Of a stretch of 64,000 nucleotides of DNA, positions 22,476 through 24,368 are shown one piece after another; position 1 is the first letter of the stretch; the number at the start of each line of letters is the position of its first letter. The DNA is taken from NCBI RefSeq assembly GCF_053078305.1, contig NZ_CP166879.1; one strand, given 5' to 3'. The translations under genes and the position numbers were made by a program. The notes under the pieces were generated by a model, which worked only from the letters and a program-made list of their open reading frames with translations, made no database searches and had not been told where the DNA came from.

Positions 22476-23672
22476 TTACAGAAATGGTAAAGAAGGCATA
22501 ATTCCCCGTGAAATACTGGCTAAGAATCCTTTATCTGGTTGTTCTTCTTTATTGATTAAAGGAAGGTCATCCAAATCGCCCAGCAAATACGTATTTTTTG
22601 CCTGCCAGTCAATCATCCATATTTTCAGCAGTGGATAAGCCAGACCGCCCGTAATCCCGGATATCACCACCAACGCACACATGCGATAAAGCATACCGTG
22701 GTATGTTAAAGTTGAGCGAAAACGAATACGCCCATCATTCAGTGACAGGTTGCTCATAAAATGATTTCGCAACGACACCGTTAAATAACTGGTGCTAACA
22801 GCAATCCCAAAATAATAGATTAACTGCGCGATTATCATTTTACGTTGCATTTCCATAAATTGCTGTAAATTCTCAATATCATCATTTGCATACACAGAAC
22901 TATCATACGCATTTAATATTTGATCGAAGATAATATAACCAGCAACAGCGAGAAAAGGTAATAAAGCTAAAAATGCGAGGATGGCATATTTTATACAATA
23001 CGCAGTATCTAATTTCACCTTGAAACGATGTATACCGAAACTGGTATTGCTCCAGAGAAAACTCATTACCAGGCTATATAAAGTACCATTAAAAATACCA
23101 ATGGAAACAATACCAACTATTGCCATCAGAACCACAGATATAATAACACTACTTGAACTATTGGCATGTAGCATCTTTGTCGAGATAAAGAAAACAGTCC
23201 CCATCCCAATGGCCATTAAAATCGGCAAGAAAAAGGTTACCCACCAGAACCCTTTCATAGAGCAATTAAAACTAAATCTTACGCCGTTGAGACTAGTCAT
23301 CAAGGCCTGATAACGCAGTCCTTTTGCTGCCATAAATATAAGCAAAACCAACAGTGACAAAGTCAAAACACAGCCAATAAGCGGCATATCTGCTGACACT
23401 GTCATTAAGATTGCGAAATAGAAAAAAACAAAAACAAGACAACTAACAAAAACATTCCCACCGGTAATCCCATAAGAAAATCGTTGTCCGTTAACTTCCA
23501 TATTAGCATAGAGATAACGCTTACATTTCATTAATGCCCATGGTAAATAGATACCTAGCGTTATAATCGTTAACAACACATTCACCACACAAATAAGAAA
23601 ATATCTCTCACCTGTACCATGAAAAACAAACGAATGGGACGGAACATCCATTTCATTAATAACTTGAGCCAT
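22476..23672 (-). CDS. yjgN: inner membrane protein, DUF898 family
   Basis: 398 aa from MAQVINEM; multiple hydrophobic segments; AT-rich. Confidence 0.85.
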   Translation of the reverse strand: MAQVINEMDVPSHSFVFHGTGERYFLICVVNVLLTIITLGIYLPWALMKCKRYLYANMEVNGQRFSYGITGGNVFVSCLVFVFFYFAILMTVSADMPLIGCVLTLSLLVLLIFMAAKGLRYQALMTSLNGVRFSFNCSMKGFWWVTFFLPILMAIGMGTVFFISTKMLHANSSSSVIISVVLMAIVGIVSIGIFNGTLYSLVMSFLWSNTSFGIHRFKVKLDTAYCIKYAILAFLALLPFLAVAGYIIFDQILNAYDSSVYANDDIENLQQFMEMQRKMIIAQLIYYFGIAVSTSYLTVSLRNHFMSNLSLNDGRIRFRSTLTYHGMLYRMCALVVISGITGGLAYPLLKIWMIDWQAKNTYLLGDLDDLPLINKEEQPDKGFLASISRGIMPSLPFL

Positions 23673-23864
23673 AAAAATTCCCTGAATTAAAAAATCCATT
23701 GATATAATTTATAGATACAGACAGTAAAATGTTCTGCCACGTTACAATACTCTTATCAGTAATAGGCTGGCAAAAACTTTATTGCTTTATAAGATGCTTG
23801 CGCACGTAAGAAGAGAGTGGTATTAAACAAATGTATAATTACTTTATTTTTATTGGGTTAAACT

Positions 23865-24368
23865 ATGAATAACATTGCGCCGCAATCACCTGTAATGCGT
23901 CGCCTGACGCTGCAGGATAATCCTGCTATTGCCCGCGTCATTCGTCAGGTATCCGCCGAATACGGTCTTACCGCTGATAAAGGCTACACCGTCGCCGATC
24001 CGAATCTTGACGAGCTGTATCAAGTGTATAGTCAGCCGGGTCATGCATATTGGGTGGTTGAGTACGAGGGTGAAGTGGTCGGCGGCGGTGGGATTGCGCC
24101 ATTAGCAGGTAGTGAATCGGACATTTGCGAACTGCAAAAGATGTATTTTCTTCCGGCTATTCGCGGTAAAGGGCTGGCGAAAAAACTGGCCTTAATGGCG
24201 ATGGAGCAGGCACGAGAGATGGGCTTCAAACGCTGCTATCTGGAAACGACCGCTTTTTTAAAGGAAGCCATTGCGCTTTATGAGCATTTGGGCTTTGAGC
24301 ATATCGACTATGCGCTTGGCTGCACGGGCCATGTCGATTGTGAAGTGCGGATGCTACGCGAACTCTAA
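23865..24368 (+). CDS. yjgM: GNAT-family N-acetyltransferase
   Basis: 167 aa in conserved position. Confidence 0.85.

Follow-up and report, generated by a model that had tools for sequence, protein, structure and literature searches.

Results

The valS-yjgN-yjgM locus

We analysed a stretch of 64,000 nucleotides (hereafter the window) from contig NZ_CP166879.1 of the NCBI RefSeq assembly GCF_053078305.1. This work concerns yjgN, an AT-rich gene for a DUF898 membrane protein that lies in the window between valS and yjgM, a gene for a GNAT acetyltransferase. RefSeq annotates the gene order as valS, yjgN, yjgM, rraB and argF (=argI), and the gene after yjgM was also recognised as that for RraB by Pfam. 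An initial annotation made from the sequence alone had assigned yjgN and yjgM to the DUF898 and GNAT families, and both assignments proved correct by Pfam and by RefSeq. The features of the locus are collected in Table 1. Position 22476, the start of the islet in the initial annotation, is the yjgN stop codon; the longest open reading frame (ORF) reaches 23699, and RefSeq and ortholog alignments favour the ATG at 23672. A 3-kb probe around the locus matched 5425 of the 5426 complete Escherichia coli genomes in RefSeq, with a best identity of 99.6%. The window is a piece of E. coli chromosome, from a strain that is not itself in that collection.

Table 1. Coordinates of the features at the locus, numbered along the window (a point in the strand column: no single strand).
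Feature	Position	Strand	Evidence or remark
valS	19565..22420	+	conserved left flank, likely homology arm for recombination
GC-rich hairpin, terminator-like on both strands, common to convergent valS and yjgN	22442..22467	.	terminator scan, inverted-repeat search
Divergent (probably replaced) block: yjgN coding sequence, 192-bp promoter spacer, yjgM codons 1-17	22471..23915	.	GC 0.367; three-way DNA alignment
yjgN, type-A allele, 398 amino acids, DUF898 inner-membrane protein	22476..23672	-	Pfam PF05987 (E = 6e-48), RefSeq
yjgN-yjgM divergent promoter spacer	23673..23864	.	GC 0.286; unalignable between types A and B
Promoter-like site for yjgN: TTGCCA, 18-nt spacer, TATTGT	23744..23773	-	consensus scan
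yjgM, GNAT acetyltransferase	23865..24368	+	Pfam GNAT (E = 1e-19); only codons 1-17 inside the block

Base composition of the locus

The GC content of sliding 400-bp segments was 0.32-0.39 from about position 22600 to 24000, compared with 0.53-0.58 in valS and a mean of 0.507 for the whole window. Segments of 1445 bp as AT-rich as positions 22471-23915 make up only 4% of the window, and similar AT-richness was found elsewhere only in the island on the leuX side and in the yjgL region. The GC content of yjgN is 0.373 and its GC content at third codon positions (GC3) is 0.363, a robust z of -3.0 relative to the 47 ORFs of the window (median GC3 0.582, standard deviation from the median absolute deviation 0.074). 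Its Karlin codon-bias distance (0.514) ranks fifth of the 47, and the codons ATA, TTA and TTT are over-used two- to fivefold. Because GC3 is low, the AT-richness of yjgN is more than an effect of the amino-acid composition of a membrane protein. The composition of yjgM is ordinary (GC 0.516, GC3 0.524, z -0.8, codon-bias rank 23 of 47). Thus, the AT-rich islet consists of yjgN and the yjgN-yjgM spacer, and yjgM lies outside it. The initial annotation had placed both genes in the islet and had proposed sliding GC and codon usage as the check: yjgN and its spacer were indeed atypical, whereas the idea was refuted for yjgM, whose values were normal.

Two yjgN alleles in E. coli

For about 815 genomes, the match to the 3-kb probe covered only some half of it. 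Two of these genomes, represented by the loci L002 and L003, carry, in the same slot, a 395-residue ‘YjgN family protein’ that is 42% identical to the 398-residue YjgN of the window. We refer to the window form as type A and to the 395-residue form as type B. Type-A DNA was present in 4629 and type-B DNA in 796 of the complete E. coli genomes (about 85% and 15%), together accounting for all but one. There was no empty valS-yjgM site; essentially every E. coli genome had one allele or the other. Type A is also present in Shigella. Truncated yjgN genes were rare in both classes (about 41 of the 4629 type-A genomes and three of the 796 type-B genomes). Among the type-B carriers are 83972, NRG 857C and an avian pathogenic E. 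coli strain of serotype O1:K1:H7, which we take to belong to phylogroup B2.

The DNA alignment of the window with type-B loci showed sharp changes in identity: 95-100% in valS, about 50% (40-70%) in the block, and 93-100% beyond codon 17 of yjgM. At single-base resolution, the block begins at 22471, directly after the hairpin, and ends at about 23915, a length of 1445 bp. Conservation in L002 and L003 reaches 22470, which makes the hairpin the final conserved element ahead of the block. As only the first 17 codons of yjgM are inside the block and the composition of the gene is normal, yjgM was not acquired together with yjgN, contrary to the initial annotation. The spacer does lie inside the block; thus, type-A and type-B strains differ in the yjgM promoter region too. 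In L003, type B sits between flanks that are 97-100% identical to those of the window, which suggests that the alleles move between backgrounds by recombination in the flanks.

The two alleles are far more divergent than their surroundings. The nonsynonymous divergence (dN) between types A and B is 0.57 and the synonymous divergence (dS) is saturated, which makes their dN/dS uninformative; for valS, dS is at most 0.2 (E. coli compared with E. albertii 0.2), and the adjacent valS differs by only 1-5% between type-A and type-B strains. At the protein level ValS is 96-99% identical to those of Salmonella and E. albertii, compared with 42% for type-A YjgN. Diversity among type-A alleles in E. coli is at most about 2.3% of nucleotides, similar to that of the flanks. 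Within the allele classes dN/dS was 0.13-0.16, compared with 0.02-0.08 for yjgM, rraB, argI and valS. Thus, selection on yjgN within each class is purifying but relaxed.

Relatives of the two alleles

E. marmotae and E. whittamii have type-B-related alleles with about 90-92% identity; identity to type B was 85-88% in E. albertii, 64-66% in Salmonella enterica and S. bongori, and 55% in Leclercia. The named type-A sequences that we read were all from E. coli or Shigella, and the closest relatives of type A outside E. coli were from Superficieibacter (63-66%). No full-length sequence with 66-98% identity to type A was found in 5.8 billion clusters; entries at 90-93% were truncated E. coli variants. 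A donor lineage with a near-identical allele was likewise not found there, the best full-length relatives being those at 63-66%.

Neighbour-joining trees separated the two alleles. Type B grouped with E. albertii in all 200 bootstrap replicates, and so did the larger group of type B, E. albertii, Salmonella and Leclercia. Type A grouped with Superficieibacter in 184 of 200 replicates, and with Superficieibacter and sequence P0022 in 200 of 200. All Escherichia alleles came together in none of the 200. Type A and Superficieibacter nest in a clade that also holds Citrobacter and Intestinirhabdus, and are not basal to the Escherichia alleles. Additionally, the N-terminus of the YjgM encoded in the window is closer to that of Superficieibacter (..RRLTAQDNPAIA) than to that of type-B strains (..RKLTVADNPAIA). 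This likeness is a weak but consistent sign that would agree with an import.

The slot in other enterobacteria and in Vibrionaceae

With YjgN as the probe, we fetched 12 enterobacterial loci from 11 genera, some of which end at the end of a contig: two species of Superficieibacter, the E. coli-labelled strain E69, E. albertii, Leclercia, Phytobacter, Pluralibacter, Enterobacter asburiae, Kosakonia, Buttiauxella, Atlantibacter and isolate RIT691. The gene order pepA-holC-valS-yjgN-yjgM-...-rraB-argI was found wherever the contig was long enough, and also in Salmonella enterica. Identity to the window across these loci was 90-99% for ValS, 72-89% for YjgM and 31-65% for YjgN. Between valS and yjgM, then, 5425 of 5426 E. 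coli genomes have a yjgN homologue, as have E. albertii, Salmonella and 10 further genera of enterobacteria. The distribution of yjgN across Enterobacteriaceae, another check suggested by the initial annotation, accordingly revealed an ortholog in this slot throughout the loci compared.

Vibrio, Photobacterium and Enterovibrio have the order rraB, a divergent MarR-GNAT gene, a DUF898 gene, an M48 gene and a convergent valS, which is the E. coli neighbourhood with an added protease gene. Identity to the Vibrio proteins is 58% for E. coli YjgM, compared with the GNAT half of MarR-GNAT, and 26% for YjgN, compared with DUF898. Judged from gene order and sequence comparison, yjgN has long been resident between valS and yjgM and is not an inserted gene.

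AT-richness was also not confined to type A. The type-B allele, which we take as native, has a GC content of 0.42 and a GC3 of 0.44-0.45. In every enterobacterial locus compared in which valS was present, the GC3 of yjgN was below that of valS, by 0.03-0.30; in Salmonella, for example, the values were 0.52 and 0.71. No such depression of GC3 was seen for the DUF898 gene in Vibrio genomes of about 45% GC. As type B and all enterobacterial orthologs are also AT-shifted, AT-richness is not diagnostic of import.

Other variation was seen in this slot. Phytobacter massiliensis has two tandem yjgN genes between yjgM and valS (L010, 5001-6194 and 6269-7582) that are about 35% identical to each other, and the second copy is 68% identical to the Kosakonia allele. 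Thus, divergent yjgN lineages can coexist side by side, besides replacing each other. In a comparison of Vibrio bivalvicida with V. profundi (L024 and L036), the valS DNA was 90-96% identical, the adjoining M48 and DUF898 genes dropped abruptly to about 50-60%, and the sequence beyond them was unrelated. The valS-proximal DUF898 cassette therefore appears to be the boundary of a variable region in Vibrio too.

A conserved DUF898-M48 gene pair

An all-against-all comparison of neighbouring genes outside the Enterobacteriaceae identified a partner gene of DUF898. In 50 of 68 such loci the DUF898 gene is followed on the same strand by an M48 gene, often with overlapping stop and start codons, and this pair is the commonest arrangement in the Proteobacteria sampled outside the Enterobacteriaceae. 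The partner gene encodes a protein of 330-400 amino acids with DUF7092 and Peptidase_M48 domains and an HExxH motif. Tblastn searches with three M48 partner proteins found no M48 gene or remnant in the window or in 18 enterobacterial loci. On the 3' side of yjgN in the window there are 55 bp and then the convergent valS, with no M48 gene directly downstream. No DUF898-M48 fusion was found among the long members of the family, which had only tandem DUF898 or DUF6693, DUF4234 and zinc-ribbon add-ons. Protein distances of YjgN were 17.9 (13.7-22.0) times those of ValS in Enterobacteriaceae, compared with 6.7 (interquartile range 5.9-8.4) times in Vibrionaceae.

The YjgN protein

Both alleles match PF05987 over their full length (type A, E = 6e-48; type B, E = 4e-57); type A scores 164 bits against a cut-off of 28, over residues 13-369. 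A profile search found 6970 cluster representatives of the DUF898 family (50% identity clusters, E<=0.001). The family motifs are kept: TLGIYxPWA near the N-terminus, GLAYP near the C-terminus and repeated short ‘RF-x-F’ strands. An AlphaFold2 model built from a 128-sequence alignment (predicted local distance difference test score 94, predicted template-modelling score 0.89) has five repeats of a beta-hairpin plus a helical hairpin. In this model, two short helical hairpins that bear the conserved TLGIYxPWA and GLAYP turns are probably re-entrant. Hydropathy peaks and the invariant residues W45, A46 and P347 agree with a polytopic membrane protein that has repeated helical hairpins and conserved G-x-x-x-P-W turns, and the small beta-sheet is probably cytoplasmic because lysine and arginine cluster in the strand-bearing loops. 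Identity between types A and B is highest in the strands and the first transmembrane helix (0.55-0.80) and lowest in the other helices and the loops of the opposite side (0.05-0.30).

No solved structural relative was found (best Foldseek hit against the PDB, E = 0.04, template-modelling score 0.30), and the model had no match among the viral structures of BFVD. Neither allele matched the PADLOC defence models, NCBIfam or PHROGs. A literature search found no functional study of yjgN or DUF898, in line with the description of the locus as functionally uncharacterised in the initial annotation, and no mention of DUF7092, PF05987 or ‘YjgN family’. One paper uses the label ‘DUF898’ for the membrane domain of the urate oxidase PuuD; we suspect that a different family, DUF989, is meant, and did not use it. 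The association with an M48 protease, suggested by gene neighbourhoods, is the only lead to a function of YjgN.

Regulation of the locus

For K-12, the yjgM/yjgN spacer is recorded as holding RpoD constitutive promoters of both genes (PMC3946193); the hexamers given there for the yjgN promoter, TTGCCA and TATTGT, are those found by our scan. Genomic SELEX (systematic evolution of ligands by exponential enrichment) also lists an H-NS site in this spacer (PMC3946193), and the spacer appears in an RpoS SELEX table as well (PMC5493296). The AT-rich block may be bound by H-NS and poorly expressed.

Other variation near the locus

No tRNA, integrase, transposase or border repeats were found around the yjgN block in the ORF list, the repeat search or the terminator scan; the repeat search gave only short matches at chance level, and the Rfam search of positions 22000-25000 returned one sub-threshold chance match only. 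In other genomes yjgN is now and then destroyed by insertion sequences (IS). In E. coli SCPM-O-B-7615 (L004, 2886-4763) yjgN is split by copies of ISKpn26 and the locus is rearranged, and S. sonnei has IS21/IS1 between yjgN and yjgM (PMC12795559). Thus, yjgN is dispensable in those backgrounds.

The last 400 bp or so of argI (window 25600-26000) are 76-80% identical to the type-B strain L002, compared with 96-99% for the rest of the gene, which marks a second recombination junction. L002 also has about 130 bp of extra sequence in the yjgM-rraB spacer (L002 ~3880-4010, window point 24406/24407) that is missing in the window and in L003 and looks like a repetitive extragenic palindromic (REP)-type element. 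In Salmonella (L085, 3651-5196), miaE and an AT-rich DUF3617 gene (GC 0.38) lie between yjgM and rraB; both are missing in E. coli. A gap of about 1.7 kb separates yjgM from rraB in other enterobacterial genera as well.

The strongest AT-rich islet nearby is yjgL (window 26054-27934, minus strand, 626 amino acids), with a GC content of 0.316, a GC3 of 0.311, a codon-bias rank of 2 of 47 and no Pfam match. This gene varies by strain: it is missing in L002, where argI is directly followed by a yjgK-like gene, it is frameshifted in O157 TR01 and ET625, and L004 has other hypothetical genes in its place.

Discussion

We propose that type B is the native yjgN allele of E. coli and that type A is a foreign allele that took the place of the resident gene by recombination in the flanking sequences. 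We give this proposal a probability of about three in four. The block ends within yjgM on the right and at the valS terminator on the left, from which it follows that the donor should have shared this gene order and that the replacement should have been homologous. The native type-B allele would have been overwritten across about 1.45 kb by a distant homologue (42% amino-acid identity), with one crossover at the valS terminator and the other just inside the 5' end of yjgM. The source of the incoming allele would be a lineage outside the present sampling, closest to Superficieibacter and with this order of genes at the locus. The type-A block would then have reached about 85% of E. coli plus Shigella, with type B persisting in about 15%. 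The old horizontal acquisition suggested by the initial annotation therefore survives in part: the yjgN allele appears to be foreign, being 42% identical to type B and grouping with Superficieibacter, but no new gene was gained because the slot was already occupied.

The second part of our model addresses why yjgN is AT-rich in enterobacteria generally. We propose that yjgN is the surviving half of an operon for a DUF898 protein and a DUF7092/M48 metalloprotease, in which YjgN may originally have been the membrane partner of the protease. The Enterobacteriaceae would have been left without the protease gene and without the MarR half of the neighbouring regulator-acetyltransferase. Loss of the partner may have relaxed the constraint on YjgN, and fast evolution together with AT-biased mutation could then have lowered its GC content in genomes of 50-57% GC.

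Several points weigh against these proposals. No known candidate donor is more than about 65% identical to type A, so that the direction and timing of transfer have to be read from the phylogeny. The trees were made by neighbour joining from very divergent membrane proteins, where long-branch artefacts are possible. The GC3 of type A (0.36) is far below that of Superficieibacter (0.54-0.56); thus, either a donor of lower GC or AT drift after transfer is needed. A single import is an assumption. For the second part of the model, loss of M48 in the enterobacterial ancestor is inferred from synteny, and a DUF7092-M48 gene may exist elsewhere in E. coli. Additionally, the higher rate ratio in enterobacteria could be explained in part by repeated swapping of the cassette instead of relaxed constraint.

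Types A and B might instead both have been kept since before the speciation of Escherichia, for example by frequency-dependent selection, with no import from another genus. Such an ancient balanced polymorphism would account for two intact alleles that are both under purifying selection and that shift between backgrounds, as type B has done in the window-like flanks of L003. It would also suit the diversity of type A (at most about 2.3%), which is comparable to that of the flanks and hence not very recent, and the similarly sharp drop in identity beside valS between two Vibrio species. However, one would then not expect the named type-A sequences to come from E. coli and Shigella only while E. 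albertii, E. marmotae and E. whittamii carry type B, nor would type A nest with Superficieibacter instead of lying at the base of the Escherichia alleles. We consider this explanation unlikely, although it is the strongest of the rivals.

We think it very unlikely that there was no transfer at all and that type A is a native allele that evolved exceptionally fast under relaxed selection and AT-biased mutation, as a membrane protein rich in phenylalanine, isoleucine, leucine and asparagine. All enterobacterial orthologs are AT-shifted and fast-evolving, the dN/dS of yjgN is above that of its flanks, and low GC at the first and second codon positions is expected of a membrane protein. These features do not explain why monophyly of the Escherichia alleles had a bootstrap support of 0/200, why A and B are saturated in dS next to a valS with differences of only 1-5%, or why the edges of divergence are abrupt and take in a non-coding spacer and 17 codons of yjgM; moreover, a GC3 of 0.36 is not an effect of amino-acid composition. 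In-place hyper-evolution probably contributes to the AT shift of the whole family without explaining the split between A and B. Least probable of all is a classical insertion, the addition between core genes of a small islet made up of an AT-rich DUF898 gene of foreign origin and perhaps yjgM. The atypical composition and codon usage of yjgN and the H-NS site listed in the spacer would fit. However, Salmonella, E. albertii and 10 other genera have an ortholog at precisely this position, as do the Vibrionaceae, there together with M48, and virtually no E. coli genome is without one of the two alleles, an empty site never being seen. Flanking repeats, a tRNA and an integrase are missing here, whereas the true tRNA-Leu/integrase island at 3.6-6.8 kb of the window has them, and yjgM has a normal composition and is orthologous to the gene beside DUF898 in Vibrio.

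In-place replacement has consequences for the study of yjgN. In pangenome pipelines, the two alleles will show up as a gene gained or lost. For ST131, a preprint counts yjgN, with bdcAR and yjgH, among the genes ‘gained’ by clade C, and gives argF/arcA/arcC-type genes as unique to B0. In our interpretation, which is not a claim of the preprint, a recombination tract that swapped type B for type A would appear in a pangenome tool as such a ‘gain’ of yjgN. Additionally, yjgN is an uncharacterised y-gene of K-12; as the K-12-type form appears to be foreign and the native allele is found in about 15% of strains, results obtained in K-12 may not transfer to those lineages. The case also carries a caution on method: AT-richness by itself is no proof of insertion, and a like-for-like swap is visible only from comparative data.

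The interest of the locus lies mainly in the two-allele polymorphism and in the DUF898-M48 pair. The conserved operon is the first concrete lead for the family and is testable in Vibrio. One could imagine that DUF898 proteins are dedicated membrane partners (a gate, an adaptor or a substrate) of the DUF7092/M48 zinc protease, in a two-gene module found across Proteobacteria whose DUF898 fold has no solved relative. The orphan enterobacterial YjgN would then be kept for another reason, with phages, colicins or contact-dependent toxins making use of its transmembrane and periplasm-facing parts, so that frequency-dependent selection preserves very different alleles and drives swapping across genera beside valS in E. 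coli and Vibrio. This is speculative, and the odds are well against it.

Comparison with known systems

YjgN resembles other members of the DUF898 family (PF05987) in its full profile match and its family motifs; the enterobacterial members differ in having no downstream DUF7092/M48 gene and in diverging about 2.7 times faster relative to ValS. The block is also similar to xenogeneic DNA silenced by H-NS, with a GC content of 0.29-0.37 in a genome of about 0.51 and a SELEX site in the K-12 spacer (PMC3946193). Unlike in such systems, the native allele is AT-rich too, so that targeting by H-NS would not single out the import.

A tRNA-linked island at leuX lies 16 kb from the yjgN block (window 3584-6802), with tRNA-Leu(CAA) at 6718-6802, a P4-type integrase at 5291-6574 and cargo at 4623-5261 that has a GC content of 0.311 and no Pfam match. 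At the same tRNA an O157 reference has different cargo, which includes Zorya and phosphorothioation-restriction genes. The island and the yjgN block have low GC and atypical codon usage in common. However, the leuX island has its tRNA-Leu(CAA) and P4-type integrase, whereas the yjgN block has no tRNA, integrase or border repeats and replaces a homologue instead of adding DNA.

Close parallels are polymorphic loci of E. coli that are known for allelic replacement: the hsd ‘immigration control region’, the rfb O-antigen cluster and fliC. As in these cases of xenologous displacement, divergent alleles occupy one position, conserved flanks serve as recombination arms, the boundaries are sharp, gene and species trees conflict, and the alleles are shuffled among lineages. 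Unlike these loci, yjgN is a single non-essential inner-membrane gene and not an obvious surface antigen or restriction system, and it has only two major classes and no identified donor. The yjgN case would thus add a further instance to an established class of events, xenologous replacement in place.

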